The notes: generated by a model not told the origin, from the sequence alone. A stretch of 64,000 nt of DNA from Phycisphaerae bacterium (GCA_012729015.1 JAAYDY010000105.1:35296-99295), one strand, 5' to 3'; shown: positions 8,034-50,015, counted from the first letter of the stretch. A program made the numbers and translations.

Positions 8034-8036
8034 CGG

Positions 8037-26302: not shown

Positions 26303-26502
26303 GGAATCTCCTTGCGACCCCGCAGTCTGATCGCAAGAGGGGCAAATCGTGTGCCAGAATGGAGCTACGGTCACGCCGCCGCGGCCGGAAGCATCAGGTG
26401 GCAGTTTCGAAATAAGCTTTCAGTGAATACCGGGGCAATGGCGGCGGAGCGATGCACATTGTTTGTGCAGCCAGGGGCGTGCGGTGTGCAGAAAGCAGGC
26501 CG

Positions 26503-27741
26503 TCAAGGGCGAGGGGCTGCCAGTTGGCGGTAGATGTCGAGGGCGGCCGGGAACGGCGTCAGGGCCCGCTGGAAGATGCCGAGGGACCAGGCGATGGTGA
26601 GGCCGTAGTTGGTGATCGGGACGCCGGCCTCGCGACAGCGGAGGATTCGCGAGAGCATCTCGCGGCGGTTCCAGACGCACGCGGCACAGTGGACCACCAG
26701 TTTGTAGGAAGCCATGTCGGCCGGGAAGTCGTGGCCCTGGGTGTGGTCGATGTGGAGTTTGCCGCCGACGTATTGCGTGAGCCACCGCGGAATCTTGACG
26801 GTGCCGATGTCCTCGCCGATCGGGTGATGCGAGCAGGCCTCGGCGATCAGGACGCGGTCGCCGGGCTTGAGGGATTCGATGGCCATGGCGCCGCGGACGA
26901 ACTCGTTGAGATCGCCCTTGAACCTCGCGAAGAGGATGGAAAAGGAGGTCATGGGAACAGCCTGCGGCGTGTCGCCGGCCACCTTGAGGAAGGCCTGACT
27001 GTCGGTCACGACAAGCGCCGGGGGACGATTGAGCCTGTCCAGGGCATCGCGCAGCTCGCGTTCCTTGACGACCATGCAGTAGGCGTCGTTGTCGAGCAGG
27101 TCGCGGATGGTCTGGACCTGGGGGACAATCAATCGGCCTTTGGGGGCCTCGAGGTCGATGGGAACGACGAGGACGGCCATGTCGCCGGGGGGGACGAGGT
27201 CGCCGATGATTGTGGGGGCGTTGACGAATTCCTCGGGCGCGGCACGGATGATGGCCTCGCGCAGATCGAGAACGCCATCGCCGCGACTGGCGACGGTCTC
27301 GACCATGGGCACCTTGGCCTCCTTGAGGCGTTGGACCACCTCGGGGCGCGGCGGGTGGAGATCGACCTTGTTGAAGACGGCGACGGCGGGCGTCTTGCGT
27401 CGGGTGAGTTCGTCGAGGATGGCGTCCTCGAACTGGCTCCAGTGCCCTGCCTCGGTGACGATGACGCCGAGGTCGGTTCGGTCGAAGACCTGTCGGGTTC
27501 GCTCGACGCGCATCTGGCCGAGGGCGCCGACGTCGTCGATGCCGGCCGTGTCGATGAAGAGGACGGGGCCCACCGGGAGCAGCTCCATGGGCTTCTCCAC
27601 CGGATCGGTGGTGGTCCCGGCGACGTCCGAGACAATGGAGACAGCCTGCCGCGTCATGGCGTTCAGCAGGGAGGACTTGCCGACATTGCGGCGTCCGAAG
27701 AGGCCGATGTGGAGGCGAAATCCCTTGGGGGCGGCTCTCAT
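26503..27741 (-). CDS. hydF: [FeFe]-hydrogenase maturation GTPase HydF
   Basis: N-terminal GTPase (GRRNVGKSSL, DTAG, NKVD) and C-terminal cluster-binding CxHx…HC motifs (EACSHHP, HCAACV). Real CDS is the C-terminal 412 aa of the ORF. Confidence 0.85.
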   Translation of the reverse strand: MRAAPKGFRLHIGLFGRRNVGKSSLLNAMTRQAVSIVSDVAGTTTDPVEKPMELLPVGPVLFIDTAGIDDVGALGQMRVERTRQVFDRTDLGVIVTEAGHWSQFEDAILDELTRRKTPAVAVFNKVDLHPPRPEVVQRLKEAKVPMVETVASRGDGVLDLREAIIRAAPEEFVNAPTIIGDLVPPGDMAVLVVPIDLEAPKGRLIVPQVQTIRDLLDNDAYCMVVKERELRDALDRLNRPPALVVTDSQAFLKVAGDTPQAVPMTSFSILFARFKGDLNEFVRGAMAIESLKPGDRVLIAEACSHHPIGEDIGTVKIPRWLTQYVGGKLHIDHTQGHDFPADMASYKLVVHCAACVWNRREMLSRILRCREAGVPITNYGLTIAWSLGIFQRALTPFPAALDIYRQLAAPRP

Positions 27742-29153
27742 GGGGTCTCCTTGTGCCCGGTCGGGCTCCCGAGACGCATGACGCTCTCGCCGGCGACCAG
27801 GGAATCGAACTGCTCGGCGGTCAGGAGTCCGGCGGCCATGGCGGCGTCGCGGACGGTCTGGCCCGAGCGTCGGGCTTCGGCGGCGATGCGCTGGGCGGCC
27901 TCGTATCCAACGGCGGCCACGAGGGCCGTGGCACTGGCCGTGGCGCCGTGGACCGTTCGCCGGCAGCGGTCTTCGTCGGCCTCGATGCCGGCGACGCACA
28001 GTCGCCGGAGGATGCCGCAGGCGGCCGTCAGCAGGTCGAGGCTTGTCAACAGTGCGTCGGCCACGAGGGGCAGGAAGGCATTGAGTTCCAGGTTGCCCAG
28101 GGAACATGCCATCGTGAGGGCGTGATCGTGAGCCATGACGGCCATGGCGGCCTGGCTGACGGCCTCGGGGATCACGGGGTTGACCTTGCCTGGCATGATG
28201 GAGGAGCCGGCCTGGCGCGGGGGCAGGCGGATTTCGCCAAGCCCGGCATCGGGCCCCGAGGCCAGCAGGCGAAGATCGCTCGACACTTTCAGAAGGTTCG
28301 AGGCGCACGCCTTGAGAATGCCGCTGACCTCGACGAAGACGTCGGCGTTCTGGGTGGCCTCAACGAGGTTCTCCGCGCGTCCGAGGCCGTAGCCGGTGAT
28401 CTCGCGGAGGTGATCGACCACGCGGAAGATGTACTGCCGCGGGGCGGCAAGGCCGGTGCCGATGGCTGTGCCGCCAAGATTAACGGTGCGGAGCCGCTCC
28501 TCGCACTTGTAGATGCGCCAGCGGTCGCGAGCGAAGGCTTCGGCGTAGGCGCCCATCTCGCGGCCGAGGGTGAGCAGAACGGCGTCCTGCAACTGCGTTC
28601 GGCCCACCTTCACGACGTGGGCCATCTGTTTCTCTTTGCGCTGGAACTCTTCGAGCAGGGCGACGACCTCGCGCTCCAGATCGCGCAGACGTCCGACGGC
28701 GGCCACCTTGAGGGCTGTCGGGTAAGTGTCGTTGGTGGACTGGTGCCGGTTGAGGTCTTCGGTGGGACTGACGGCAGCGTAGTCGCCCAGGGGCCGGCCG
28801 AGGAGTTGCAACGCGCGGTTGGCAAGAACCTCGTTGACGTTCATGTTGGTGGAGGTGCCTGCGCCGCCCTGAAGCGCATCGACGACGACGTGGGCATCGA
28901 GCCGGCCTTCGATCATCTCCTCGCAGGCGGCTTCAATGGCCGCGGCCGTGCGGTCGTCCCAGCATCCGAGTTCGCGGTTGGTCCGGGCGCAGGCCAGTTT
29001 GACGGCACCGTAGGCACGGACGAGCGCGGGGTTGACCGCGCGGCGGGCCAGCGGGAAGTTCTCGATGGCCCGCTCGGTGTGGATGCCATGCAGAGCGTGG
29101 GCGGGAACGTCCCGCTCGCCGAGAAGATCGTGTTCTTTGCGATAGGCAGTCAT
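27738..29153 (-). CDS. Aspartate ammonia-lyase / class II fumarase family protein
   Basis: GSSIMPGKVNP signature and full-length AspA/FumC similarity. Embedded between hydG and hydF with operon-type spacing. Confidence 0.8.
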   Translation of the reverse strand: MTAYRKEHDLLGERDVPAHALHGIHTERAIENFPLARRAVNPALVRAYGAVKLACARTNRELGCWDDRTAAAIEAACEEMIEGRLDAHVVVDALQGGAGTSTNMNVNEVLANRALQLLGRPLGDYAAVSPTEDLNRHQSTNDTYPTALKVAAVGRLRDLEREVVALLEEFQRKEKQMAHVVKVGRTQLQDAVLLTLGREMGAYAEAFARDRWRIYKCEERLRTVNLGGTAIGTGLAAPRQYIFRVVDHLREITGYGLGRAENLVEATQNADVFVEVSGILKACASNLLKVSSDLRLLASGPDAGLGEIRLPPRQAGSSIMPGKVNPVIPEAVSQAAMAVMAHDHALTMACSLGNLELNAFLPLVADALLTSLDLLTAACGILRRLCVAGIEADEDRCRRTVHGATASATALVAAVGYEAAQRIAAEARRSGQTVRDAAMAAGLLTAEQFDSLVAGESVMRLGSPTGHKETP

Positions 29154-29169
29154 GGTTGATCACCGGGGT

Positions 29170-30594
29170 CTAGAAGTACAGGTCGCGGTCGTCGCTGGTC
29201 CGAATCCGATTGAGCCTCGAGGCCAGTTCCGTCTTGATCGTTCCCTCGGGCAGCCGGTCGAGTTCGGCAGCAATCAGGCGGCGGCCGGCCTCTCGCGTCT
29301 CGGGCGATGCGTAGTCGGTCAGGTACTCCGTCAGGGTGCTCAGGGCGTTGGGGGTGCAGAAGTCGCGAATGAATCCCGGAATGGCAAACTCCATGAAGTG
29401 CTCGCCCGTGCGACCGAGGCGGTAGCAGGCCGTGCAGAAGCTCGGAACGTAGCCGTCCTGGATCAACTCGCGCATCACCAGGTCCAGCGGTCGGATGTCG
29501 CCGAGCATGAACTGCTCGCGCTGCATGACCTGGGTGTCGCCGGCCTCGGTGTATCCGCCGATCTCGATACGGCTGCCGGCGTCGATCTGCGAGACGCCGA
29601 AGGCCATGACTTCGCGGCGCAGTTCCGGCCGCTCACGGGCGGTCATAATCAGCCCCGTGTACGGCACGGACACACGCAGAATCGCCACCAACCGTTTGAA
29701 CTGGTCATCGGTGACGAGGTGACGCGGGTCGGTCTGGACGCCGGCGGCCGGTTGCAGGCGCGGAAAACTGATCGTGTGGGGGCCGACGCCGTACCGTTGC
29801 TGCAAGTGCAGCGCGTGCTGCACGAGTCCCAGCACTTCGAACCGCCAGTCGCACAGGCCGAACAGGGCGCCGATGCCCATGTCGTCGCAGCCGGCCTCGA
29901 AAGCCCGGCTGAGGGCGTCGAGCCGCCAGAGGTAATCCGCCTTGCGCGTTCCGGCCGGATGCAACCGGGCGTAGGTCTCGTGGTGATAGGTTTCCTGAAA
30001 GACCTGGTAGGTGCCGATGCCGGCCTGCTTGACGATGCGGTAGCCCTCGTGGTCCTGGGGCGCGGCATTGATGTTGACTCGCCGGATGCTGCCGTGGCCC
30101 ACCTTCACGTCGTAGACCGTGCGCACCGTGTCGGCGATGAACGAGGCATCGTATTTCGGATGCTCGCCGTAGACGAGAATCAGCCGCTTGTGACCGACCT
30201 GCTCCAGGGCTTCGACCTGGGCGATCAGTTCGTCGCGTGTGAGAGTGCGACGGACGGCATCGCGATTGGAGCGTTTGAACCCGCAGTAGGCGCAGTCGTT
30301 GACGCAATCGTTGCCGACATAGAGCGGCGCGAAGAGCACGATGCGGTTGCCGTAGACGTCGCGTTTCAACTGCCTGGCGGTGTTCAGAATCCGTTCGACG
30401 AGCGCCGGGTCCTCAGCAGCCAGGAGGACCGCCGTCTCCTCGATCGTCAGCGCCTGCTTGGCCCGGCTCTTGGCCAGGATGTCGTCCACGCGGGCTGCGT
30501 CGGGCCGGGCCGTGTGCAGCAGGTCGGTCAGGTGCGCATCATGAATGAAATCCACAGCTCCTTCGCTGAGGGTCATTGCCGCAAGCTTTCCCAT
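29170..30594 (-). CDS. hydG: [FeFe]-hydrogenase maturase HydG (radical SAM tyrosine lyase)
   Basis: CVNDCAYCGF radical-SAM motif. C-terminal CTACYR…C cluster motif. 474 aa. Confidence 0.9.
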   Translation of the reverse strand: MGKLAAMTLSEGAVDFIHDAHLTDLLHTARPDAARVDDILAKSRAKQALTIEETAVLLAAEDPALVERILNTARQLKRDVYGNRIVLFAPLYVGNDCVNDCAYCGFKRSNRDAVRRTLTRDELIAQVEALEQVGHKRLILVYGEHPKYDASFIADTVRTVYDVKVGHGSIRRVNINAAPQDHEGYRIVKQAGIGTYQVFQETYHHETYARLHPAGTRKADYLWRLDALSRAFEAGCDDMGIGALFGLCDWRFEVLGLVQHALHLQQRYGVGPHTISFPRLQPAAGVQTDPRHLVTDDQFKRLVAILRVSVPYTGLIMTARERPELRREVMAFGVSQIDAGSRIEIGGYTEAGDTQVMQREQFMLGDIRPLDLVMRELIQDGYVPSFCTACYRLGRTGEHFMEFAIPGFIRDFCTPNALSTLTEYLTDYASPETREAGRRLIAAELDRLPEGTIKTELASRLNRIRTSDDRDLYF

Positions 30595-30610
30595 GTCAGA
30601 CCACTCCTCT

Positions 30611-31681
30611 CTACGCCTTCATCGGGCCGGGTGCCTGCCGGAGACGATACGCTCCGGAGTCGCCCCGCCCTCGACCGATGGTTCGCCCCATGGCCACAAT
30701 GCCGGCCTTCACCTGTCGGTCGAATTCGTCCGTTTCCCCGCAAGAGGCCTTGCCGGGATAAATCTCGTACATGGCACGATACGCCGGCGGCGTCAGGTTG
30801 GGCATGACGACGTTGCCGCCGCGAGCCAGCCCGAGTTGTCGCCCGCCCTCGGCATTCAGCGTGGCCAGGGCCGTCGTGCTCGGGATGTTGGCCCTCGGAC
30901 AGACGATTCGCGCCAAGGCCACCGCCTTACAGCCAGTGAGCTCGTCGGCAGGCGCCTGCTCCCCCGGCGGCAGGCACCATGCCTGGCCGTCGCGGCCCAG
31001 GGGCGTGTCCGGGTGTGCGATGAACGGCCCCAGGCCGATCATGTCCAGGTCGAGTTCGCCGAACAGTTCGATGTCCCGAGCCAGATCGTCGAGACTCTGG
31101 CCGGGGATGCCCACCATGACGCCGCTGCCGATCTCGTAGCCCATGGCGCGCAGGTATCGCAGAATCGCCAGCCGGTCGCGAGGCTCCGCCCCCGGTCGCG
31201 CCGGGTGAATCCTCGCGAACAACGCCTTGTTGCTCGTTTCGAACCGAAGCAGGTAGCGGTCGGCCCCGGCGTCGCGCCACAGGGCCAGTTCGTCGTTGGT
31301 CCGCTCGCCCAGACTGAGCGTTATGGCCAAGGGCGTCTCGGCCTTGATGCGGCGGATGACCTCGGCAAGCCAGCGGGCCTCGATGCTCCAGTCTTCGCCC
31401 GATTGCAGGACAACGGTGCCATAGCCGAGAGCAACGGCTTTGTCGGCGGCAGCGAGAATCTCGCCGGCGGTCATGCGATAGCGCGGTAAGCCCGTGCGGT
31501 CGGCCCTCACGCCACAGTAAAGGCATTGACGAGAGCAGTGGTTGGATATCTCGATGAGGCCGCGCAGGTGCACTTCGTCGCCGACACACTCTCGCCGCAC
31601 GTCGTCTGCGTGCTTCCACAACGACTCGAGGCGGCCGGGCTCGGTCTGTCGAAGCCACGAGCGGATGTCGTCATGCGTCAT
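30611..31681 (-). CDS. hydE: [FeFe]-hydrogenase maturase HydE (radical SAM, BioB-like)
   Basis: CSRQCLYCG radical-SAM motif and BioB-like fold. Start at MTHDDIRSWL (ATG 31681). Confidence 0.85.
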   Translation of the reverse strand: MTHDDIRSWLRQTEPGRLESLWKHADDVRRECVGDEVHLRGLIEISNHCSRQCLYCGVRADRTGLPRYRMTAGEILAAADKAVALGYGTVVLQSGEDWSIEARWLAEVIRRIKAETPLAITLSLGERTNDELALWRDAGADRYLLRFETSNKALFARIHPARPGAEPRDRLAILRYLRAMGYEIGSGVMVGIPGQSLDDLARDIELFGELDLDMIGLGPFIAHPDTPLGRDGQAWCLPPGEQAPADELTGCKAVALARIVCPRANIPSTTALATLNAEGGRQLGLARGGNVVMPNLTPPAYRAMYEIYPGKASCGETDEFDRQVKAGIVAMGRTIGRGRGDSGAYRLRQAPGPMKA

Positions 31682-32834
31682 GATCCTGTACCGCCTCGAC
31701 GGCCTGATCGGCCCGGACCTTGCGCGACAGGACGACTGTGAAGGTGCTGCCGACGTCGGGTTCGCTCTCGACGCGAACCTCGCCGCCGTAGAGGGTCGCG
31801 AGCCGGCGGACAATCGACAATCCGAGGCCGCTGCCCAGGATGTTGCGCGTTCGGTCGTTCTTGATCCGGACGAACTCGCCGAACAGTCGCGACGTTTCCT
31901 CTTTGCTCATCCCGATGCCCGTGTCGGTGACGGCGATGGTGATCGTGTCGGCATCGCCGCCGAGCCGCACGTCCACGCGGCCGTTGTCGCGATTGTACTT
32001 CACGGCATTGGAAACAAGGTTGTTCAGGACGATCTCGATCTCGCCTGCGTCGGCCATCATCAGGAGCGGCCCGGACCCGTGAATCTGGAGCGTGATGCTG
32101 CGTGCCCTGGCGTCGGGCATCGCCGTCTCGACAGCGGTATCTGCCAGAGCGCGGACATCGACTTCGGCCAGTTCGCGTTTCTTGCGGCCGGACTCGATGT
32201 GCGTCAGGTCGAGCAGGTCGACGATCAGTTTGCGCATGTGCCGCGTGCGGATCAGGCATCGGTCGAGCATGTGGTCGTAGGTGGCCTGATCGTCGCCGGC
32301 GGTTCGGTCGCGTACAATCTGAAGGTAACCCTCGACGGCGGCCAGGGGCGACTTGAGCTCGTGAGCGACAACGCGGATGAACTCGAACCGGACCTGTCGC
32401 TTCTCCTGGGCGAGGCGGCGGGCCTGTCGGGCCGTGATCAGCGTCTCAGCGGCCCGTCGGATCGTGGTCTTCAGCTCGCTGGGCGTGAAGGGTTTGGCCA
32501 GGAAGTCGTAGGCCCCCTGCTTGATGGCGCTGACGGCCGTCTCGAGCGAGGCGTAGGCGGTGATCATGATCGTGAGCATATGATCGCTGCGTCCGACGTG
32601 GTCCAGGACGTCGAGGCCCGACATGCCGGGGAGCTTGTGATCGAGCAGGAGGATGTCGGGCTCGGAGGCGCGGATCATCTCAAGGGCCTTCTCGCCGGTG
32701 TCGGCGGTCTCGACGGTGAACGCCACGCGCTGGTCGATGTCCGTGAGGTCGAAATGGCAGTCGCCCAGCGCGCGGGCCACCCCCATCCGCATCCCCGGTT
32801 CGTCGTCCACGACCAGCACGCGAAGCGTCTCCAC
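31671..32834 (-). CDS. Hybrid two-component protein: N-terminal receiver domain fused to HisKA-HATPase histidine kinase
   Basis: VLVVDDE…ILLLDHKLPGMSGLD receiver. H-box VAHELKSPLAAV. G1/G2 ATPase boxes (DTGIGM, GSGLGLSIV). Confidence 0.8.
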   Translation of the reverse strand: METLRVLVVDDEPGMRMGVARALGDCHFDLTDIDQRVAFTVETADTGEKALEMIRASEPDILLLDHKLPGMSGLDVLDHVGRSDHMLTIMITAYASLETAVSAIKQGAYDFLAKPFTPSELKTTIRRAAETLITARQARRLAQEKRQVRFEFIRVVAHELKSPLAAVEGYLQIVRDRTAGDDQATYDHMLDRCLIRTRHMRKLIVDLLDLTHIESGRKKRELAEVDVRALADTAVETAMPDARARSITLQIHGSGPLLMMADAGEIEIVLNNLVSNAVKYNRDNGRVDVRLGGDADTITIAVTDTGIGMSKEETSRLFGEFVRIKNDRTRNILGSGLGLSIVRRLATLYGGEVRVESEPDVGSTFTVVLSRKVRADQAVEAVQDHDA

Positions 32835-32838
32835 GAGC

Positions 32839-33228
32839 CTACCCTTTCACCAGTCGGCCGATTTCCCGCTTGAGTTGCTCGAACCGCACGGGCTTGTCCA
32901 GAATCGCGTCGGCCTTCACCCAGGCCCGCTCGCCGTCGGTCGTAGCATCGAACTTGATGCCCGTCTCGGCGGCCACAGCGGTGACCATGACGACCGGCAG
33001 CGCGGCGTCCTTGGCCTTGATCTCGTGGCAAAGGACAAACCCGTCGTCCATGTGCTCCATCATCAGGTCCACCACAACGAGATCCGGCCGGCCCTGCGCC
33101 AGGGCCTTGCGGGCCTCGGCGAGGCCGTCGGCCTCGACCACCGCAAAACCGGCGGCCTCCAGTTGCACGCGCAGCTGGGCGCGGAAATCCATGTCGTCGT
33201 CTACTACCAGAATCGTTCGTGCAGCCAT
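32839..33228 (-). CDS. Single-domain CheY-like response regulator
   Basis: 129 aa, ILVVDDD…DLVVVDLMMEHMDDG receiver domain only. Real CDS is the C-terminal part of the 525-aa ORF. Confidence 0.8.
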   Translation of the reverse strand: MAARTILVVDDDMDFRAQLRVQLEAAGFAVVEADGLAEARKALAQGRPDLVVVDLMMEHMDDGFVLCHEIKAKDAALPVVMVTAVAAETGIKFDATTDGERAWVKADAILDKPVRFEQLKREIGRLVKG

Positions 33229-33293
33229 GCTCTTCGTCCTGCCTTTCACTGTCGCAGCGTCGCCGGAGGGATGCGCCGGGAGCGCCGCAGCCC

Positions 33294-35336
33294 TCAGACC
33301 TTCACCGTCCTGGCCTCGGCCCGACGCGGCAACGTCACCGTGAACGTTGTCCCCGTGGGGCCGGCCTTCGGATCGGCATTGGATCGCACGCGGATGTCTC
33401 CGCGGTGCATCTTCACGATACCGTAACTGACAGCCAATCCCAAGCCTGTTCCTTCGCCGATCTGCTTCGTCGTGAAGAACGGCTCGAAAATCTTCTCCAG
33501 GTTCTCCTTGGCGATGCCGACGCCCGTGTCGGTCACCTCGATCTGGACTCGGTCGCCCTGGGCCCGCGTCGTGACGGTCAGCGTGCCGCCCTCCGGCATG
33601 GCGGCCACGGCGTTGCTGGCCAGGTTGGTCAGCACCTGGACCATCTGGTCGCGGTCCAGGTCCACGACGGGATCCGCTAACTGGTGATCCACAACGACCT
33701 TGACGTTCTCGGGCATCGCAACGCCGCCGAGCATCGCCTCGACCAGTTCCTTCGTGTCGGTCGGCTCGTGGACCACCTTGTTCTGCCGGGCGAAGTGGAG
33801 CAGGCCGGAGACGATCTTCTTGCAGCGATCTGCCTGCTCGGCCACCATGGCCAGGTCGCCGCGAAGCCGCGCGTCTTTCGGACACTCGTCCAGCAACAGG
33901 TGCGCGTACATCAGGACCACGCCGAGCGGGTTGTTCACCTCGTGGGCGATACCGGCGGCAAGCTGTCCCATGCTGGCCAGCTTCTCGGATTGGATCAGGG
34001 CGGCCTGCGCACTGGCCAGTTGGTCGTTGCTGACAGCCAGGTCCTTGACCGCGCGGCGGAGCTGCTCGATCGTGTAGGGCAGGCACATTTCGCTTTCGGC
34101 CAGGCCCTTGAAGATAGCGATGGCGTGCTCGCGGCAGGTGTCGTAGCCGCAGGCGCCGCAGTTCAGCTCGTCCTGCGGGGTGAACTTGCCCATTCGCGCC
34201 AGGATGGTGCGGATGTCGTCGTCGTCCAGGGGCGCCGGCATGCGCTGATCGTTGGAGGCGAACACGCGGCCCAGGTCGAGGTCGGCCATGTCGTCCATCG
34301 CGCGGCGCCAGGCGTCCATGTCGAACTGCTCGCGGCGGCGACGCACGTACTGGCTGACGCGCGAACGGCGGCGGAAGAGGGCATCGGTGCTGCTGGTGCC
34401 GGCGCCCATGATACACCCGTTGCAGCAGAGGACTTCCAGGAGCCGCGCGTCGAGGTCGCCCGACTTGAACTCGGCGATGGCCTCGACGAAATTGGTGCGC
34501 CCGTCGGCCGCGACGACCTGGCCGGTCATCAGATCCTCGCTGATGCCGGCGGCCTGGAGCATGCCGCGACTGATGGGGAAGAGGGCCCCTGCCCCTCCGA
34601 GCGGCGGATCAAAGTCCGACGGCTCGGCCTTGGACGCGGCGAGGCCGGCTTCGCGCAGCATGTCCTGCAACTCGATGAACGTCAGGACGGCATCGACCTC
34701 GTGGGCCACGCGGACGCTGGCGGCCTCGCCTTTTTTGGCGATGCATGGACCGACGAAGACGACCTTCAGATCCGGGCCGTGCAGCCGCCTCAGGACGCGG
34801 GCCGTGGCGATCATCGGCGACACGATGGGCGCCAATGACGCCACGACCTCGGGGTGATAGCGTTCCACGTATCCGAAAATCGCCGGGCAGCTCGTGGCGA
34901 TGTACCGCTTGTCGGGATTCTCCTGGAGCAGCCGGCGGTAGCGGTCGGCCACCAGGTCGGCGCCGAAGGCCACCTCATTGACGAGGTCGAAGCCCAGGGC
35001 GCGGATCATGCCGACGACCCTGAGCGGATCGACGCCGGCGAACTCGGCCGGGAAACTCGGCGCGACGATGGCTGCGACGCGAGAGGGCCCTTTCAGGATC
35101 GCCCTGACGTCGGCCGTGGAATCCAGAACCTGTTTGGCCCGCTGGCTGCAAACGCGGACGCAGTTTCCGCAGCCGATGCAACGCTGTGGAATGACGTCGG
35201 CCTGGCCGTCGGCGATGCGGATGGCCTTGGCCGGGCATTCGCGCACGCACGTATAGCAGACGCGGCAGCGCTCCTTGACCGTCGTGACCAGAGGAAGGTT
35301 CTGTGCATGCTTCAACCGACGTTCCTCACTTGACAA
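33294..35336 (-). CDS. Sensory-type [FeFe]-hydrogenase (HydS-like H-domain) fused to a histidine kinase
   Basis: N-terminal 2x[4Fe-4S] ([24 protein letters not shown]). H-cluster motifs L1 ATSCP, L2 [10 protein letters not shown]3 [14 protein letters not shown] Cx2Cx4Cx16C motif (CGACGYDTC…EMC). Then HisKA ([12 protein letters not shown]) and HATPase_c. TTG start at 35336, overlapping hydA by 11 nt. Confidence 0.85.
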
Positions 35337-37047
35337 CTTCGCGCGGTGCGTAATGCGTGTGCAGCAGGTGATGGCTCTTCTCGCCCAGGGGCTTGCCGAG
35401 GAACTCCTCGTAGAGCCGCTGGACTTCCTTGTTGGCGTGCGACGTCCGGAGGGCGGCGTCGCGGTCGATCTTGTACAGGGCCCTCATTCGGGCACGGACC
35501 TGCTCGGGCTGCGTCTGGTACGGTTGTCCGCCGCCGGCGATGCACCCGCCGGGGCAGGTCATGACCTCGATGAAGTGCAGGTCGTTGCGTCCGGCGCGGA
35601 TCTGTTCGAGCAGCCGGCGGGCGTTGGCCAGGCCACTAACGACGGCGACGCCCACGTCCAGCCCGTCAACATTGAGGCGGGCCTCTTTAACGCCCTTGGC
35701 GCCGCGAACGGCCTGGACCTTCAGTTCGTCCATTTCGCGGCCGGTGATCAGCCAGTACGCCGTGCGGATGGCGGCCTCCATGACGCCGCCGCTGGCACCG
35801 AAGAGCTTGCCGGCGCTGGACCGCTCGCCGAACGGCGTGTCGGCGGAGTCGGGCTCCAGCGAAGCCAGGTCGATGCCTCGCATGTGAATCAGGCGCGCCA
35901 CTTCGCGCGTCGTCAGGACGGCGTCGATGTCGGGATTGCCGCTCTGGGTCATCTCGGGGCGGCCGGCCTCGAACTTCTTGGCTGTGCACGGCATGATCGC
36001 CACGCTGAAGATGCGCGACGGGTCCAGCCCGGCACGCTGGGCGAAATGTGTCTTGATGATTGCGCCGAGCATCTGCTGCGGGCTCTTGCACGTGGACAGG
36101 TTCTCGATGAAGTCCGGGAAGAACTGCTCGACGAATTTGATCCAACCCGGAGAGCAACTGGTCATCATCGGCAGCCGGCCGCCGGTCTTGACGCGTTGGA
36201 CAAACTCGCTGGCTTCTTCCATGATCGTCAGGTCGGCGCTGAACGAGGTGTCGAACACACGGTCGAATCCAAGGGCTCGCAGGGCCGCCGTGAGGGTGCC
36301 GGCCATGTCGATGCCGGGCTTCAGGCCGAACTCCTCGGCCACCGTGACGGACACTGCCGGTGCGTGCTGCACGACCACCGTCATGTCGGGATCGTTCAGC
36401 GCATCGACCACCAGCTTGAGGTGACTCTGTTCTCGCAGCGCCCCGGTCGGGCAGACCATGATGCACTGGCCGCAGTTGATGCAACTGGACACGTTGAGCC
36501 CATCGTTGAAGGCGGTGGTGACCTGGGTGTGACATCCTCGGCCGACGAAATCAATGGCCGAGACGCCCTGGATTTCCTCGCATACGCGGACGCAGCGGCC
36601 GCACAGGATGCACTTGGCCGGATCGCGCACGATGGACGGGCTGGAGAGGTCCATCTTGTCGTCGTTCTTGGCGCCGGTGAATCGTCGCTCGCGAACGCCG
36701 AGCTCCTCGGCGAGCGACTGGAGCTGGCAACTGCCGCTGCGGACGCAGAAGAGGCAGTCGTCCGGATGGTTCGACAGGAGCAGTTCGACGATCGTCTTGC
36801 GGGCCCTGAGGACGCGCGGCGAGTGGGTCTGAACCTTCATGCCCGCAGTCACGGGGAATGCGCAACTGGGGACGAGGCCCCGTTGTCCTTCGACCTCGAC
36901 GACGCACATGCGGCACGCGCCGCTGGGAAACAGCTCGTCCATATGGCAGAGCGTCGGCACCTTGATGCCGGCTCGTTTCAGCGTGTCCAGCAGCATTTCG
37001 CCCGGCTGGGCTTCCACTGTCCGATGATTGACTTCAATGGTAACCAC
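35326..37047 (-). CDS. hydA: [FeFe]-hydrogenase catalytic subunit HydA (M3-type, NuoG-like N-terminus)
   Basis: 2Fe-2S, His-ligated 4Fe-4S and 2x[4Fe-4S] domains at the N-terminus. H-cluster motifs TSCSPGW (L1 variant), MPCTAKKFE (L2), EVMTCPGGCIAGGG (L3). GTG start with GGGAG upstream. Confidence 0.85.
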   Translation of the reverse strand: MVTIEVNHRTVEAQPGEMLLDTLKRAGIKVPTLCHMDELFPSGACRMCVVEVEGQRGLVPSCAFPVTAGMKVQTHSPRVLRARKTIVELLLSNHPDDCLFCVRSGSCQLQSLAEELGVRERRFTGAKNDDKMDLSSPSIVRDPAKCILCGRCVRVCEEIQGVSAIDFVGRGCHTQVTTAFNDGLNVSSCINCGQCIMVCPTGALREQSHLKLVVDALNDPDMTVVVQHAPAVSVTVAEEFGLKPGIDMAGTLTAALRALGFDRVFDTSFSADLTIMEEASEFVQRVKTGGRLPMMTSCSPGWIKFVEQFFPDFIENLSTCKSPQQMLGAIIKTHFAQRAGLDPSRIFSVAIMPCTAKKFEAGRPEMTQSGNPDIDAVLTTREVARLIHMRGIDLASLEPDSADTPFGERSSAGKLFGASGGVMEAAIRTAYWLITGREMDELKVQAVRGAKGVKEARLNVDGLDVGVAVVSGLANARRLLEQIRAGRNDLHFIEVMTCPGGCIAGGGQPYQTQPEQVRARMRALYKIDRDAALRTSHANKEVQRLYEEFLGKPLGEKSHHLLHTHYAPREVVK

Positions 37048-37062
37048 AGTATGACTCCCGAC

Positions 37063-39030
37063 TTATTCCACGGTAATGGCATTGAACCGACAGGCCGCGA
37101 CACACGAGCCGCAAGCGACGCACTTTTCCGGAACGATGTAGTGTGGGCTCTTCGGTGCGCCCATGATGGCGCCGCTGGGACACTGGCGAGCGCAGAGCGT
37201 GCACCCCTTGCACTTGTCCGGATCGATCTTGTACACAAGCAGTTCCGTGCAGACTCCCGCGGGGCAGCGACGCTCGTAGATGTGAGCCTCGTACTCGTCG
37301 CGGAACCATCGGAGCGTGCTCAGCACGGGGTTCGGGGCGGTCTGCCCCAGGCCGCAGAGGCTGGCGTCACGAATGACCTCGGCCAGCCGTTCGAGGTTCA
37401 TCACGCCCTTGAAGCGTTCGAGGGCGGCGGGCCCCTTCTCGGTGCGGTAGCCCTGTGTGATGCGTTGGAGGATTTCGAGCATGCGGCGCGTGCCCTCGCG
37501 ACACGGGATGCACTTGCCGCAGCTTTCGCGCTGGATGAAGTCCATGAAGAACTTGGCCACATCGACCATGCAGGTGTCTTCGTCCATGACGACGAGGCCG
37601 CCGCTGCCCATCATAGCGCCGACGGTCTTGAGGGACTCGTAGTCGATCAGGATGCCCAGGTGCTGGGTCGGGATGCAGCCGCCCGACGGGCCGCCGATCT
37701 GGACGGCCTTGAAGGCCTTGCCGTTGGGAATGCCGCCGCCGATGTCCAGGACGATCTGGCGGATGGGCGTGCCCATGGCCACTTCGACCAGGCCCGTGCG
37801 CGACACCTTGCCGGAGAGGGCGAACACCTTCGTGCCCTTGCTGGTCTGAGTTCCCGTGGCGGCGAACCAGTCGGCGCCCTTGGAGACGAGCATCGGCAGG
37901 TTGGCCAGGGTCTCGACGTTGTTGATGACCGTGGGCTTGCCGAACAGGCCGCTGACGGCCGGATAGGGCGGCCTCGGCCGCGGCATGCCGCGTTTGCCCT
38001 CGACGCTGTTGATCAGGGCAGTTTCCTCGCCGCAGACGAAGGCGCCGGCACCCTGCTTGAGCATGATTTCGAGGTCGAACCCGCTGTCGAGGATATTGCG
38101 GCCGAGCAGGCCGTAGGCCTTGGCCTGGGCGATGGCCTGGTTCAACCGCTCAATGGCCAGGGGATACTCGGCGCGGATGTAGACGTAGGCCTTGTTGGCG
38201 CCGATGGCGTAGGCGGCCAGGGCCATGCCCTCGAGCAGGCGATGCGGATCGCCCTCGATGACGGCCCGGTCCATGAAAGCACCGGGGTCGCCCTCGTCGG
38301 CGTTGCAGATCAGGTACTTCTGGTCGGCGGGCTGCTGGAGAGCGAACCGCCACTTGCGGCCGGTCGGGAACCCGCCGCCGCCGCGGCCTCGCAGGCCGCT
38401 GCGCTCGACCGTCGCGCAGAGGTCGTCGCGCGTCATGCCGCGAAGCGCGTCGGCGAAGGCGCGGTACCCGCCGCGGGCGATGTACTCTTCGATGCTCTTC
38501 GGGTCGATGCGGCCGATGTCCACGAGGACCCAGCGCGTCTGCGGGCCGAAGAACGGGTGCTCGTCCAGGAACGGCACGCCCGACCAACTTTCCAGGGTGG
38601 GGTGGCGGTGCTGGCCGATGAGGCCTTCCTGCGGCACGTTGCCCGCCAGCACGGCGTCCAGCAGGGCCGGCACCTTGTCGGACGTGACCTCGCCGAAGGA
38701 CAACCGCGTGCGGCCGGGCAGTTGCACGTCCACCATGGGTTCCACGGCGCAAAGGCCAATGCACCCGACCTCGACGACGTCGGCATCGACGCCCTTGGCG
38801 GCCAGATGGGCCCGGACGGCTTCGAGGGTCTTGCCGGCGCCGGCACCCAGGCCACACGTGCCGGCCCCGACGAAGACGCACGGACGCTCAATCACGTCCC
38901 GGCGGAGGCAGGCCAGCAGGGCTTCGTCCTGGACGGGATCGCCGGCGATATACGCAAGAAGCTCCGGCGACGGGGCGGAGCCCACGCGCCGGCGTGTTCT
39001 GTCTTGATTTCGTTCACTTACTGTGGACAT
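37063..39030 (-). CDS. hydB: NuoF-like NADH-binding flavoprotein subunit of [FeFe] hydrogenase (HydB/HndC-like)
   Basis: N-terminal thioredoxin-like 2Fe-2S. NuoF core (GRGGGGFPTGRKW, CNADEGDPGAF, ESCGKCIPCR). C-terminal 2x[4Fe-4S]. Confidence 0.85.
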   Translation of the reverse strand: MSTVSERNQDRTRRRVGSAPSPELLAYIAGDPVQDEALLACLRRDVIERPCVFVGAGTCGLGAGAGKTLEAVRAHLAAKGVDADVVEVGCIGLCAVEPMVDVQLPGRTRLSFGEVTSDKVPALLDAVLAGNVPQEGLIGQHRHPTLESWSGVPFLDEHPFFGPQTRWVLVDIGRIDPKSIEEYIARGGYRAFADALRGMTRDDLCATVERSGLRGRGGGGFPTGRKWRFALQQPADQKYLICNADEGDPGAFMDRAVIEGDPHRLLEGMALAAYAIGANKAYVYIRAEYPLAIERLNQAIAQAKAYGLLGRNILDSGFDLEIMLKQGAGAFVCGEETALINSVEGKRGMPRPRPPYPAVSGLFGKPTVINNVETLANLPMLVSKGADWFAATGTQTSKGTKVFALSGKVSRTGLVEVAMGTPIRQIVLDIGGGIPNGKAFKAVQIGGPSGGCIPTQHLGILIDYESLKTVGAMMGSGGLVVMDEDTCMVDVAKFFMDFIQRESCGKCIPCREGTRRMLEILQRITQGYRTEKGPAALERFKGVMNLERLAEVIRDASLCGLGQTAPNPVLSTLRWFRDEYEAHIYERRCPAGVCTELLVYKIDPDKCKGCTLCARQCPSGAIMGAPKSPHYIVPEKCVACGSCVAACRFNAITVE

Positions 39031-39499
39031 CGGCAGAGGCCTTTCCTCGATACGAATCCAGAATCTTCCTGACCGAATCCGGCGTCAGTTTCGCATGAAA
39101 CTCGCCGTTGACGCACATCACCGGAGCCAGGCCGCAAGCCCCGATACAAGCCACGACCTCCAGGCTGAACAGGCCGTCGCGGGTCGTTTCGCCCGGCTTG
39201 AGCTTCAGCTCGCGCTTCACGGCTTCCAGAATGCCGGCCGACCCCTTCACGTGGCAGGCCGTGCCGCGGCAGAGCTGAATGTGGAAGCGTCCCTGCGGCT
39301 GAAACCGGAACTGGTTGTAAAAGGTGGCCACGCCATAGACCTTGCTGGCCGGCAACCCCAGATGCTCGCCTACGCGGGCGACCGATTCTCGCGACAGGTA
39401 GCCCTCGACCTGCTGCACCTTCTGCAGGATCGGAATGAGGGCATCGCGACCGGCGCCGGCATAGTCCTTGAGAATTCCGCCTACGTCGACCTTTGTCAC
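39014..39499 (-). CDS. hydC: NuoE-like 2Fe-2S subunit (HydC/HndA-like)
   Basis: Cx4C…Cx3C thioredoxin-like ferredoxin (LCRGTACHVKG…ACIGACGLAP). GTG 39499 with AGGAAGG upstream. Upstream part of the ORF is artefactual. Confidence 0.75.
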   Translation of the reverse strand: MTKVDVGGILKDYAGAGRDALIPILQKVQQVEGYLSRESVARVGEHLGLPASKVYGVATFYNQFRFQPQGRFHIQLCRGTACHVKGSAGILEAVKRELKLKPGETTRDGLFSLEVVACIGACGLAPVMCVNGEFHAKLTPDSVRKILDSYRGKASADVHSK

Positions 39500-39510
39500 A
39501 GCAGTCCTTC

Positions 39511-40152
39511 CTAACTGACCGACACCTTGTGGGCTCGCTTCTGGCGAGCGAAGAACGCCACCTTCTCCAGAGAGGTGGTCACATCGATATCTTCGACATA
39601 CACATGCTCCGGCACGCGAATCGCCACGGGAGCGAAGTTGAGCAGTCCACGGACGCCGGCCCGCACAAGCACATCGGCCACGTCCTGGGCGGCCTCGGCC
39701 GGAACGGCCACCATGGCCACCCGAATGCCTCTGTCGTCGACGACCGAGGCCATGTCTTCGATCGGATAGCACCGACATCCATGCACCACGCGATTGGTCT
39801 TGGAGCCGTCCTGATCGAACGCAGCCACCATCTTGAGCTTGGGCCGGCGGCCCTCGAAGTAGGCCATCATCGCGCGGCCGATGTTGCCGACACCCACCAG
39901 GGCAACCGCCTCCGGCTCGTCAGCATCCAGGAAGAGCCCGATATGCTCAATGAGCTCGGGCACGTCATATCCCCTGGCCGGACTCCCGGAACAGCCGACC
40001 GTCATCATGTCGCGACGCACCTGGGCAGCGGTAACGCCGGCGGCAGACGCAAGTTCATGTGAGAACACGTGTCTTGTGCCACGGTTGCGCATGGCAACCA
40101 GGAGCCTTCGATAGAGGCTCAGCCGTCCTACGGTTCGCTCGGGAGTCATCAT
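39511..40152 (-). CDS. rex: Redox-sensing transcriptional repressor Rex
   Basis: Winged-helix N-terminus plus Rossmann NADH-binding domain (LVGVGNIGRA). 213 aa. Confidence 0.85.
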   Translation of the reverse strand: MMTPERTVGRLSLYRRLLVAMRNRGTRHVFSHELASAAGVTAAQVRRDMMTVGCSGSPARGYDVPELIEHIGLFLDADEPEAVALVGVGNIGRAMMAYFEGRRPKLKMVAAFDQDGSKTNRVVHGCRCYPIEDMASVVDDRGIRVAMVAVPAEAAQDVADVLVRAGVRGLLNFAPVAIRVPEHVYVEDIDVTTSLEKVAFFARQKRAHKVSVS

Positions 40153-40197
40153 AGGGGCCTCGTTGCCAGGCAGCCAAGCACCGTTACGCGCCTCACG

Positions 40198-40215
40198 CTG
40201 TGAATCATTTCACAA
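40198..40215. promoter_or_regulatory. Putative Rex operator (cTGTGAA-TCAT-TTCACAA) ~45 nt upstream of rex
   Basis: Inverted repeat matching the Rex consensus TTGTGAA-N4-TTCACAA at 17/18 positions, read directly from the sequence. Confidence 0.6.
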
Positions 40216-40960
40216 GCATATTATCGGTTTTCGGCCCGGATTTCAACCCAAAATTCGCCCCATTCTTGACATTTGGTGGAAATCCCAGGGGGCTCTGCCC
40301 TCTCCAAGCGGGGCTCCTGCGGGGCGGACGATTCGCTTCCTGTCACTGCCCAGAACGCACTCGCCCTGGTGGGCCGTCACGTCTGAATCTGAACGTGCCA
40401 TGAATGTGAGAGTGTCGTCTAAAGGTGTGCGACTCGGTGCACGGAGCTCGCTCTGACATCGGCTGTGCGGCCGCTGCAAGGTGAGCCCTCAACGTCCGTT
40501 CGCGTCCCTAACGGCCTGCCAGACATCCTGGCCACGCGAACAGGCACGCGTGCGGCAACTCGCGCCGCAGCGCACTGACACCGCCGTCGTGGACAGCCGG
40601 GAGGGAATCTGGTGAGCCAACCACCCGGTCTTGCTATGGCAGGTGCAGCATGCGGGCACGCGGCGTGGTGCTGCGGACAGACGCCGGCACGGCAGGCGCG
40701 AACGGCCGTTGGATCGGGCAGCGTCGATGTGTTGCGTTATTGCAGCCAGTGGGAATTGTTTGTGATTATGCAATGAAGGGGGTTGCCATGGGCGCGCGAC
40801 CCGGTATAATTCCGAGCAGTACCTGGGGATCGACTTCGCAATTCGCCCGTTGCCGCGGCGACGGGATCTGGAACAGCAGAACGGGAAAACTATCCGAGTT
40901 CGTCCAGAGAGGCGCCTGTTGACAACACAAGGCGCGCAGGATTTCGAAGTAACCCCCTGA

Positions 40961-40978
40961 TTGTGAAATGGTTCACAA
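40961..40978. promoter_or_regulatory. Putative Rex operator (TTGTGAAATGGTTCACAA) ~125 nt upstream of hoxF
   Basis: Perfect match to the Rex consensus palindrome TTGTGAA-N4-TTCACAA. Confidence 0.7.
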
Positions 40979-41104
40979 GGGAATGTTGGTCGCCGTGTCA
41001 ATGAGTATGAGTCGCTGTTGGTGACGAGTACCTCCGGGCGCTGGCAAGATGGTTTGGGGCGTGTTTCAACGGTTCCCTGGTTTCGATGCGATTGAGGGCA
41101 CTGC

Positions 41105-42916: not shown

Positions 42917-42940
42917 AGTCTGCTAAGGGGCGAACTGGCG

Positions 42941-43654
42941 ATGAGCGAAACGATCACGTTCACAATCGACGGTAAGGAAGTCAGTGCCCAGCCGGGCCAG
43001 ACGATCATGCAGGCCGCCGACGCCGCGGGCATCTACATTCCACGTTTGTGCGCCTTCGAAGGCCTCGTGCCGCACGGCAGTTGCCGCGTCTGCACGGTGA
43101 TGGTCAACGGGCGTGCGCAGGCGGCATGCACGCAGCCGGTGGCCGACGGCATCGTCGTCGAGAACGATACCGAGAAGCTGCTGGCGATTCGACGGGACAT
43201 CATCGAGATGCTCTTCGTCGAGGGCAACCACTACTGCATGTTCTGCGAGAAGAGCGGCAACTGCGAGCTTCAGGCGTTGGCGTACCGGTTCGGCATCGCC
43301 GCTCCGAAGTATCCGTACCTTTTCCCGAAGCGGGAGATCGACGCCACTCACCCGGACATTTTCATTGATCGCAACCGTTGCGTTCTGTGCGGCCGGTGCG
43401 TTCGGGCGTCACGCGACGTGGACGGCAAGGGCGTGTTCGAGTTTGTGGGTCGCGGCCCGCAGAAGCGTGTGGCCGTGAATGCGGAGGCGAACCTGGCCGA
43501 CACGGATCTGAAGACGAGCGACAAGGCCGTCGAGGTGTGCCCGGTCGGGGCCATTCTCAGGAAACGGGTAGGCTATGCCGTTCCGGTGGGCAGACGCCGG
43601 TACGACCACAAGCCGATCGGTTCGGACATTGAACAGGCTGCATCGAAGAAATAG
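42941..43654 (+). CDS. hoxU: HoxU diaphorase Fe-S subunit (NuoG N-terminal-like: 2Fe-2S plus 4Fe-4S)
   Basis: 2Fe-2S CxxC…C motif near the N-terminus. HxxxCxxC and CVLCGRCVRAS clusters. ATG preceded by AAGGGG. Confidence 0.85.
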   Translation: MSETITFTIDGKEVSAQPGQTIMQAADAAGIYIPRLCAFEGLVPHGSCRVCTVMVNGRAQAACTQPVADGIVVENDTEKLLAIRRDIIEMLFVEGNHYCMFCEKSGNCELQALAYRFGIAAPKYPYLFPKREIDATHPDIFIDRNRCVLCGRCVRASRDVDGKGVFEFVGRGPQKRVAVNAEANLADTDLKTSDKAVEVCPVGAILRKRVGYAVPVGRRRYDHKPIGSDIEQAASKK

Positions 43655-43667
43655 GGGCTATTGTCAC

Positions 43668-44213: not shown

Positions 44214-44237
44214 TCCCATGTTTTTGGAGCCCAACAC

Positions 44238-46189: not shown

Positions 46190-46203
46190 ATAGGGGAAAT
46201 GCA

Positions 46204-49757: not shown

Positions 49758-50015
49758 GCCAGCGACGGCTTTATGGGAAGGGACCGCTGGACGCACGCCA
49801 CACACCCGGGTCGCAATCGAAGCCCGGTGTGACACGCATCACCCACCTTGGCCTGGCGGCGGTGTATCCTCTGGATTCATTGTCCGGTTGCTGCTGTCGG
49901 TTGATTAGCGGCGCTGGGAGGTCTATAATTCGCACCAGTGACGAGGCGCCACGCACGTGCCCGCTCATGAGGCGGCATCACACGCGGTGCGTATGACGGG
50001 GACTCGGACAACGCG

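Follow-up and report, generated by a model that had tools for sequence, protein, structure and literature searches.

The stretch of Phycisphaerae bacterium DNA analysed here (JAAYDY010000105.1:35296-99295; 64,000 nucleotides, referred to as the window) carries eleven consecutive genes at 26503-40152 that combine the redox repressor Rex, a trimeric [FeFe] hydrogenase, a hydrogenase-like protein fused to a histidine kinase (HydS-HK), two receiver proteins and the machinery that matures the H-cluster. The question raised by this locus is whether the genes are expressed and controlled as one unit and, if so, on what the signal of the kinase finally acts. The reading favoured by the present analysis, with a probability of roughly 55%, is that they constitute a self-contained and mobile cassette of H2 metabolism, most likely served by one Rex-gated promoter, in which a phosphorelay would run from HydS-HK through a receiver-kinase hybrid (REC-HK) to a stand-alone receiver (REC) acting by protein contact. 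Whether the so-called sensory [FeFe] hydrogenases sense H2, and how their signal is passed on, is an unsettled question, and a sensor fused directly to a canonical kinase, with two partner receivers encoded next door, presents the most tractable form of this problem. The cassette family is, in addition, very common in metagenomes from anoxic habitats, and an understanding of the cassette would explain how H2 production is tuned in many uncultured fermenters.

Gene content and conservation of the cassette

Gene identities were assigned by Pfam and NCBIfam searches, mostly with scores above the curated cutoffs, and start codons were chosen from ribosome-binding sites and from the positions where profile matches begin. 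These searches returned a match for every gene and bore out the eleven-gene cluster that an earlier note, drawn from the sequence alone, had described: rex, hydC, hydB, hydA, hydS-HK, REC, REC-HK, hydE, hydG, an aspA-like gene and hydF, the minus strand carrying all real genes of this interval, in a window with a guanine-plus-cytosine (GC) content of about 67%. From rex to hydF the junctions measure +11, -17, +15, +10, +65, +4, -11, +16, +16 and -4 nt. The short or overlapping junctions reported in the note are thus present, but its upper limit of 63 nt does not hold, the largest gap being 65 nt, between hydS-HK and REC. This gap would shrink to +44 nt if REC started at the GTG at 33249, and the hydA/hydS-HK junction would become -11 nt with an alternative start of hydS-HK. 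Six of the predicted proteins are exact matches to proteins of a Phycisphaerae metagenome-assembled genome, NLX60122.1, NLX60123.1, NLX60125.1, NLX60127.1, NLX60128.1 and NLX60131.1, and the accession gaps between NLX60122 and NLX60131 fit one gene each for the intervening genes.

When genomes were scanned at species level with HydS-HK, 27 relatives of full length and a partial one were recovered, and the corresponding loci (designated by L numbers) were searched by tblastn with the eleven proteins. The core hydCBA-hydS-HK-REC-REC-HK was found in about 27 loci belonging to at least eight phyla, namely Planctomycetota, Acidobacteriota, Bacteroidota, Myxococcota, Elusimicrobiota, WOR-3, Bdellovibrionota and Hydrogenedentota. 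Every one of the 25 loci that extend far enough has hydA upstream of hydS, in some cases with REC between them (REC precedes hydS in L010, L018, L025 and L026), and REC-HK is located downstream of hydS wherever the sequence continues. The gene rex is present in 13 loci, before hydC in nine of them and after REC-HK in the remaining four, which are from Bacteroidales. Downstream maturase genes on the same strand were seen in 11 loci and were lacking in more than half. The order is retained in L021 through aspA, where the contig ends, and the metagenome contig L082 has the complete set of eleven in this order, neighbouring genes overlapping by 4 nt at hydS/REC, REC/REC-HK and REC-HK/hydE; a further metagenome contig, L081, carries the seven-gene core. 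The synteny on which the earlier note had staked its proposal is therefore kept across at least eight phyla. The recurrence of one gene order in many unrelated genomes means that the arrangement is not a product of chance and, judged by its occurrence across these phyla, the cassette is horizontally mobile. The HydS-HK family is also abundant, since 120 out of 120 clusters formed at 90% identity among the matches listed share the full domain architecture (at least 65% identity). A small gene with a 23S_rRNA_IVP (four-helix-bundle) domain was observed in L082 at 7763-8242, inserted between hydB and hydA.

The catalytic subunit HydA (573 amino acids; 35326-37047, minus strand; exact match to NLX60128.1) scored 841 bits against NF040763, for which the cutoff is 765. 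The two genes directly upstream, which overlap each other by 17 nt, encode HydC (161 amino acids; 39014-39499, minus strand), a NuoE-like [2Fe-2S] subunit (PF01257, 1e-51; NF005722, 155.7 against a cutoff of 141) with a GTG start and a GGAAGG ribosome-binding site, and HydB (655 amino acids; 37063-39030, minus strand), a NuoF-like FMN/NADH subunit in which Pfam recognised the NuoF core together with an N-terminal [2Fe-2S]-type domain and a C-terminal 2x[4Fe-4S] domain. The NuoE/NuoF-linked architecture attributed to HydABC in the earlier note was hence confirmed, and the enzyme is assigned to group A3 (NCBIfam 'A6', Bfu family) of the trimeric flavin-linked [FeFe] hydrogenases. HydB can be aligned over its whole length with the B subunits of five bifurcating enzymes of known structure (7t2r_B, 9n5u_B, 7q4v_B, 8a6t_B and 7p5h_B), and HydA scored 628 bits to HydA1 of Thermoanaerobacter kivui (8a6t_A) and 589 bits to HydA1 of Acetobacterium woodii (7q4v_A), both references coming from solved electron-bifurcating complexes. 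The published sequence criteria for a bifurcating HydB are Ala/Glu-x-Met (GAFMDR), Phe (GAGAFxCGEE), GGPSG, and the extra N-terminal [2Fe-2S] and C-terminal 2x[4Fe-4S] domains (Losey et al. 2020). All four marks are found in HydB of the window, with Ala and Met in GAFMDR, Phe in GAGAFVCGEE, and GGPSG. On these sequence features, HydABC is a trimeric enzyme whose flavin subunit has the cluster complement and signatures of the electron-bifurcating (confurcating) type.

A non-bifurcating, NADH-only enzyme, as the name of NF040763 ('NADH-dependent [FeFe] hydrogenase group A6') would imply, was considered and rejected on account of the bifurcating signatures of HydB; this label and the signatures disagree, and electron bifurcation by HydABC is a prediction from sequence. 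Among the H-cluster motifs of HydA, L2 (MPCTAKKFE) and L3 (EVMTCPGGCIAGG) are canonical, and L1 has the variant form TSCSPGW (residues 296-302; window 36130-36170) instead of TSCCPxW. In register with the conserved equivalents of E279, E282, R286 and S319, the Ser of this variant corresponds to Cys300 of CpI, which ligates the [4Fe-4S] part of the H-cluster. This variant also occurs in the characterised A. woodii HydA1 (7q4v) and in 17 of the 20 HydA proteins of the cassettes, and an L1 of this type has been reported in Melainabacteria.

A further part of the gene cluster concerns H-cluster maturation. HydE (356 amino acids; 30611-31681, minus strand) is a radical-SAM (S-adenosylmethionine) H-cluster maturase with a CX3CX2C motif (TIGR03956, 288 against a cutoff of 254.6), and its start overlaps the stop of REC-HK by 11 nt. 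HydG (474 amino acids; 29170-30594, minus strand; NLX60123.1) is a radical-SAM maturase with CX3CX2C and a C-terminal CX2CX22C (TIGR03955, 502.4 against 312), and HydF (412 amino acids; 26503-27741, minus strand) is the maturation GTPase and scaffold, with a P-loop and CxH...HCxxC (TIGR03918, 558 against 325.6), whose gene shares an ATGA overlap with aspA. The aspA-like gene (27738-29153, minus strand) encodes an aspartate ammonia-lyase homologue of 471 amino acids with the loop GSSIMPGKVNP; it passes the subfamily model NF008909 (626 against 510) and remains under the cutoff of the equivalog TIGR00839 (493 bits, cutoff 681). Ammonia-lyase genes are found in hyd operons, and lyases can supply the bridgehead nitrogen during maturation (2024, PMC11736057). 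The aspA-like product is a probable supplier of ammonium for the dithiomethylamine bridge.

Predicted Rex operators and transcription of the cluster

The first gene of the cluster encodes Rex (213 amino acids; 39511-40152, minus strand; exact match to NLX60131.1), an NADH/NAD+-sensing repressor composed of a winged-helix N-terminal domain (PF06971) and a Rossmann NAD(H) domain (PF02629). This assignment is above the curated cutoff in three NCBIfam models: NF003995 (206.6 bits, cutoff 126), NF003996 (175.9 bits, cutoff 138) and NF003994 (167.6 bits, cutoff 130). Upstream of rex, a candidate sigma-70-like promoter (TTGAAA-17-TAATAT; 40218-40246, minus strand) matches the consensus at 9 of 12 positions; taken alone this site is weak, because the consensus used in the scan does not cover the promoters of this phylum. 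A predicted Rex operator, TTGTGAAATGATTCACAG (40198-40215, minus strand), with one mismatch to TTGTGAA-N4-TTCACAA, begins 3 nt past the -10 hexamer and ends 46 nt before the rex ATG. A second predicted operator, TTGTGAAATGGTTCACAA (40961-40978, strand not assigned), has no mismatches and sits 127 nt upstream of a divergent operon for an NAD-linked [NiFe] hydrogenase (41105-46581, plus strand), which encodes a HoxE/F fusion, HoxU, the small and large subunits, a maturation protease and a stand-alone receiver. The HoxE/F fusion carries residues of the non-bifurcating type (GTFKDR and GAGAYICGEE).

With up to three mismatches allowed, TTGTGAA-N4-TTCACAA was matched only twice in the 64 kb, as compared to an expectation of 0.56, and both matches fall in the one intergenic region of about 950 bp between the two hydrogenase operons. 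This region (40153-41104) is unusually long and has a lower GC content (about 0.62). It also contains a strong sigma-70-like site (TTGCCA-16-TATAAT; 40783-40810, plus strand) 150 nt upstream of the perfect Rex box, and an Rfam search of the region returned nothing credible. Because the perfect operator precedes the [NiFe] operon, the Rex of the cassette probably gates both hydrogenase operons. A search for Rex boxes in 17 related loci revealed two exact matches, and six matches at up to two mismatches, five of these boxes lying just upstream of the first cassette gene (L009, L013, L021, L024 and L026). Since few boxes were found among the 17 loci, conservation of the operator is partial.

The organization of the genes downstream of rex is in line with a common transcript. 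Three junctions overlap (hydC/hydB by 17 nt, REC-HK/hydE by 11 nt and aspA/hydF by 4 nt), and the hydS/REC and REC/REC-HK junctions each overlap by 4 nt in L081 and L082. A sigma-70 consensus scan of 25800-41300 detected no promoter-like site at any gene junction, and the only terminator-like site on the minus strand was a weak one inside hydB, both scans being consensus-based and weak for this phylum. Predicted RNA folding was no better than that of shuffled sequences in the hydS-REC gap (z = +0.65) or in the 130 nt after hydF (z = -0.52). In view of the overlapping junctions, the 4-nt overlaps in relatives, the promoter-like site and predicted Rex operator upstream of rex, and the lack of a convincing internal terminator or promoter, co-transcription of all eleven genes is plausible.

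The putative sensor kinase, the receivers and competing explanations

HydS-HK (673 amino acids; 33294-35315, minus strand) joins a sensory-type [FeFe] hydrogenase domain to a histidine kinase, with matches to Fer4, Fe_hyd_lg_C, the FeS domain PF04060, HisKA and HATPase_c. The start at 35315 is the one used by NCBI for the exact match NLX60127.1, a protein annotated merely as '4Fe-4S binding protein'; the alternative TTG start at 35336 gives 680 amino acids. The protein is laid out as two N-terminal ferredoxin-type cluster motifs, the hydrogenase domain (H-domain), a Cx2Cx4Cx16C motif and the HisKA/HATPase_c core. Alignment revealed that the eight N-terminal Cys, the four H-cluster Cys (C143, C191, C298 and C301), the K/E of L2 and the four Cys of the C-terminal motif (C386, C389, C394 and C411, with exact Cx2Cx4Cx16C spacing) are invariant in 25 of 25 orthologues from eight phyla and in 47 of 47 metagenome homologues. 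The same holds for the kinase motifs, namely His458, the N box (N564/N568), the G1 box DTGVGI and the G2 box GTGLGL.

The equivalent of Cys299, before the L1 Cys, is mostly S, T or D in the 25 orthologues, with Cys not among the common residues; Gly stands in place of M353 and Leu in place of M497 in every one of them. By a manual count of the register from the L1 Cys, the equivalents of E279, E282, R286 and S319 in HydS of the window are V, R, L and A. Putative sensory [FeFe] enzymes of groups C and D show the same loss of Cys299, of the proton-transfer residues, of Met353 and of Met497. HydS-HK thus combines full cluster ligands with the absence of proton-relay residues, as would be expected of a sensor, H2 sensing itself being putative.

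In the AlphaFold model of HydS-HK (mean pLDDT, predicted local distance difference test, 80.5), only helices are found between the H-domain and the kinase. The four-Cys motif leads into a helix at 412-426, which is followed by the long dimerization and histidine phosphotransfer (DHp) helix at 434-477 bearing His458, an arrangement through which the C-terminal cluster may, by its redox state, be coupled mechanically to the kinase helices. A cryptic PAS domain was considered for this segment and rejected, as Pfam gave no match to PAS in HydS-HK and residues 300-430 of the model (AF2) contain helices only, without a beta-sheet domain. Because it has no PAS domain, HydS-HK is taken as a kinase-fused variant and not as a member of M2f. 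As a separate observation, Cys498 in the second DHp helix (window 33822-33824; QADRCKKIV) is invariant in the 25 orthologues and the 47 metagenome homologues.

The two genes downstream encode REC (129 amino acids; 32839-33228, minus strand) and REC-HK (387 amino acids; 31671-32834, minus strand; exact match to NLX60125.1). The earlier note had stated that neither receiver protein has a DNA-binding domain, and the Pfam results agree with it: PF00072 alone, with no output domain, was found in the former, and a receiver followed by a HisKA-HATPase_c kinase core, and nothing else, in the latter, so that the receiver is the sole input domain of that kinase. Residues were regarded as near-invariant when conserved in at least 26 of 27 sequences. 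In REC, Asp54 and Lys112 are near-invariant, the acidic pair D10/D11 is present in the window sequence, and the family signature is D-L-M-M-E-x-x-D-x-G, which is shared by the stand-alone receiver of the divergent hox operon (46132-46581, plus strand; 29% identity). The receiver of REC-HK has D10, D11, D65, T92 and K114, of which Asp65, Thr92 and Lys114 are near-invariant in 26 orthologues, as are H158, N276, D304-G306-G308 and G334-G338 of its kinase core.

The likely order of phosphotransfer was approached through the families that these domains resemble. The kinase core of HydS-HK scored best to AtoS and ZraS and that of REC-HK to PnpS and PhoR, while REC scored best to RpaB, OmpR and PhoB. 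The receiver of REC-HK was the best match in the window to the NtrC-type regulator of the related locus L007 and also matched a LuxO-like receiver. AtoS and ZraS are the partners of the NtrC-family regulators AtoC and ZraR, and PnpS and PhoR are those of PhoB-type regulators. Because of this resemblance of kinase cores and receivers, the order HydS-HK to REC-HK to REC is favoured for the predicted relay.

As regards the output of the relay, no conserved transcription factor was found after REC-HK in any locus, 10 of the 90 downstream open reading frames having been read by eye, without a profile search on them; those of loci lacking the maturase genes were unrelated (by appearance riboflavin-kinase-like, metallo-beta-lactamase-like, PEP-CTERM and esterase proteins). 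A different arrangement was seen next to hydC. Three cassettes are without rex, and two of these, L007 and L025, carry a divergent regulator of the receiver-Fis-helix-turn-helix (HTH) kind at this position. The regulator of L007, from Thermoguttaceae (region 4073-5771), is of the full NtrC type (REC-AAA+-Fis), and a near-consensus sigma-54 promoter, TGGCACGTTTTTTGCT (TGGCAC-N5-TTGCT; 5708-5723), is located 48 nt upstream of hydC; the regulator of L025 (region 2827-3990) is REC-Fis-HTH, and two TTyGTGAAAAAArGCACGA repeats lie upstream of hydC. To judge by gene arrangement and promoter motifs, transcription of the hydrogenase operon is under the control of the sensor system in one relative at least, L007. 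The two rex-less loci, one of them fully NtrC-type with a sigma-54 promoter, suggest that the DNA-binding part of the cassette can be either rex or, alternatively, a receiver regulator that binds DNA. In the window, tblastn with the L007 and L025 regulators matched only the two cassette receivers, and no sigma-54-like promoter (at least 10 of 11 fixed positions) was detected in the operon region. Because the cassette crosses phyla and, where rex is present, has no DNA-binding response regulator, the terminal receiver is somewhat more likely, although only slightly so, to act on a partner encoded in the cassette than on a distal regulator.

Taken together, a mechanism can be proposed in which a high NADH/NAD+ ratio would release Rex and the whole unit would be expressed, HydABC disposing of NADH and reduced ferredoxin as H2. 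HydE, HydG and HydF, with the aspartate ammonia-lyase as the source of the bridgehead nitrogen, would make the H-cluster, and the same maturases would load both HydA and HydS. Binding and slow oxidation of H2 at HydS would shift the redox state of the accessory clusters and thereby set the autophosphorylation of His458, from which the phosphoryl group would pass to REC-HK, with its NtrC-like receiver as the acceptor; the PhoR-like kinase core of this protein would then phosphorylate the OmpR-like stand-alone REC. The terminal REC would contact a partner within the cassette, Rex being the most plausible and HydABC the second, and so add a feedback by the product H2 on top of the control by NADH. 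The specific proposal that phosphorylated REC binds Rex (or HydABC) directly, with H2 and NADH/NAD+ integrated at one operator, is viewed as improbable; if true, the cassette would be a transferable circuit with its own product feedback, and Rex would be controlled in a manner not known before.

Several observations weigh against the reading as a single Rex-gated unit with an internal target, and they bear on the alternatives to it. A recognisable Rex box (up to two mismatches) is present in only about one third of the related loci, promoters inside coding sequences would escape a sigma-70 scan in a planctomycete, rex follows REC-HK in Bacteroidales, and hydEGF is absent or elsewhere in many loci. 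The cluster may then be a conserved neighbourhood and not one operon, made up of rex-hydCBA, hydS-REC-REC-HK and hydE-hydG-aspA-hydF, each with a promoter inside the preceding coding sequence, in which case the levels of sensor and maturases would be uncoupled from those of the enzyme. Since the placement of rex and the presence of hydEGF vary among loci, the modules can function as separate units, and the shifted rex of the four Bacteroidales loci, the position of REC before hydS in the four loci named above, the frequent lack of hydEGF downstream, the 65-nt hydS-REC gap and the restriction of the promoter scan to the sigma-70 consensus all fit such a division. It is nevertheless regarded as a possible rather than a probable organization, given the three overlapping junctions, among them REC-HK/hydE, which links the signalling and maturation modules, the 4-nt overlaps at hydS/REC and REC/REC-HK in L081 and L082, and a hydS-REC gap with neither terminator-like structure nor promoter-like site.

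The relay could also have a transcriptional output, through a distal DNA-binding response regulator such as an NtrC-type enhancer-binding protein, with the stand-alone REC serving only as a phosphate sink or modulator. The proposed relay order derives from kinase and receiver family resemblance, and the L007 and L025 regulators, whose receivers are most similar to that of REC-HK, are equally well compatible with a distal regulator in this genome; the NtrB/AtoS/ZraS-like kinase core of HydS points in the same direction, as does the sigma-54 promoter of L007. On the other hand, neither such a regulator in the 64-kb window nor a sigma-54-like promoter in the operon region was detected, none of the other 25 or so loci has a DNA-binding regulator linked to the cassette, although the latter has moved between phyla, and REC is conserved with a signature of its own, which argues for a specific function. 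A distal output is on balance a tentative explanation, on the unlikely side. It is also conceivable that HydS-HK responds not to H2 but to redox state or electron flux, by way of reduced ferredoxin or as a fourth 'T' subunit on HydABC, the hydrogenase-like domain being an iron-sulfur scaffold. The sensory role of group C [FeFe] enzymes is still termed putative in the literature, in which a search found no experimental H2-sensing test for any kinase-fused HydS, and HydS-HK has up to three accessory clusters; a survey of Hydrogenedentota moreover treats the protein as a 'BfuT' subunit and doubts that its separate group C1 hydrogenases have recognisable H-cluster motifs (PMC11406978). However, the H-cluster Cys and the L2 K/E, invariant in all orthologues and metagenome homologues, would be difficult to account for if no H-cluster were bound. 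Maturase genes are, moreover, often co-encoded, and the characterised group C and D enzymes that have these replacements carry a functional H-cluster and are reactive towards H2. A role restricted to redox sensing is therefore judged rather improbable.

Related systems and neighbouring genes

The closest described locus is that of Caldithrix abyssi, in which Cabys_3675-3679 comprise rex, hydC/B/A-type genes of a bifurcating [FeFe] hydrogenase and one further gene, Cabys_3679 (Kublanov et al. 2017, PMC5317091). A Rex site, cTGTGAATCAATTCACAt, was reported just upstream of rex, and the operon was read as de-repressed at high NADH/NAD+ (PMC5317091). As in the window, rex comes first and is followed by the three hydrogenase subunits, and the C. 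abyssi site is nearly identical to CTGTGAATCATTTCACAA (plus strand) of the window; in contrast, C. abyssi belongs to another phylum, and the cassette of the window adds hydE, hydG, aspA and hydF. The published account of C. abyssi makes no mention of a kinase fusion, of two receivers or of linked maturases (PMC5317091). In a later paper C. abyssi serves as the reference organism for clusters in which a sensory hydrogenase with a kinase domain is encoded after the catalytic subunit. Cabys_3679 is presumably the kinase-fused hydrogenase.

Two surveys describe the same fusion protein with the same type of trimeric hydrogenase and Rex nearby. 'Sub-type V' BfuABC clusters with BfuT, a group C3 [FeFe] hydrogenase with a histidine-kinase domain, were reported in Hydrogenedentota, Calditrichota and Bacteroidota (PMC11406978), and a HATPase-fused group C hydrogenase adjoining a trimeric group A enzyme and Rex was reported in groundwater Elusimicrobia (bioRxiv 10.1101/765248). 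An additional upstream copy of hydS, a feature reported for Bacteroidota, is present in L011, L013 and L015. Both surveys catalogue genes and describe neither the conserved REC/REC-HK pair and the logic of its relay nor Rex operators and linked maturases, and response regulators have zero mentions in PMC11406978. The locus is thus a further example of a widespread, already published and biochemically uncharacterised cassette type. What it contributes is a clean eleven-gene version, the evidence for a conserved REC and REC-HK pair, and the apparent occurrence of rex and a DNA-binding receiver regulator as alternatives; otherwise the locus adds little beyond the cultured C. abyssi or the published surveys.

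Among the sensory hydrogenases, TmHydS (group C, M2f) and TamHydS (group D, M2e) resemble HydS-HK in the N-terminal 2x[4Fe-4S], in an H-domain without Cys299 or proton pathway and with Met353 and Met497 replaced, in the C-terminal Cx2Cx4Cx16C motif, and in the position of the gene beside a bifurcating group A enzyme. TmHydS signals via PAS and TamHydS has no signalling domain, whereas the four-Cys motif of HydS-HK is joined by helices to HisKA/HATPase_c, and neither TmHydS nor TamHydS has a defined downstream partner.

A functional parallel is offered by HoxBC-HoxJ-HoxA of Cupriavidus necator (Ralstonia eutropha), in which a slow, sensor-type [NiFe] hydrogenase is bound non-covalently to a kinase and the output is the NtrC-type HoxA. 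In both systems a sensor-type hydrogenase controls, or in the window is predicted to control, a histidine kinase governing hydrogenase expression; the sensor of the window differs in being [FeFe]-type and fused to its kinase, with no linked DNA-binding regulator, the relative L007 excepted. Relays of several kinases without DNA-binding output are known from Leptospira (LvrA/LvrB) and Myxococcus (RedCDEF), their output being unknown or exerted via protein contact. As in the cassette, a kinase feeds a REC-HisKA-HATPase protein, accompanied by stand-alone receivers, and the model and structure of LvrB were among the matches to cassette proteins. Homology to LvrA/LvrB and RedCDEF is however limited to generic kinase and receiver domains and the inputs are unrelated, so that the likeness is architectural.

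On the downstream side of the cluster, a gene for a secretin (GspD/PilQ-like; 24335-26374, minus strand) starts 128 nt after hydF, and no recognisable terminator separates the two; because the genes after hydF differ among relatives, it is probably outside the cassette. Two further modules of anaerobic redox metabolism were observed beyond the hox operon. At 49971-53761 (plus strand), a GltD/HdrA-like flavoprotein fused to an MvhD (FlpD) domain is followed by MetV-like and MetF (methylene-tetrahydrofolate reductase) genes, and at 57152-59511 (minus strand) the window encodes a second pair of NuoE and NuoF with a C-terminal ferredoxin domain, of the Bfu type.

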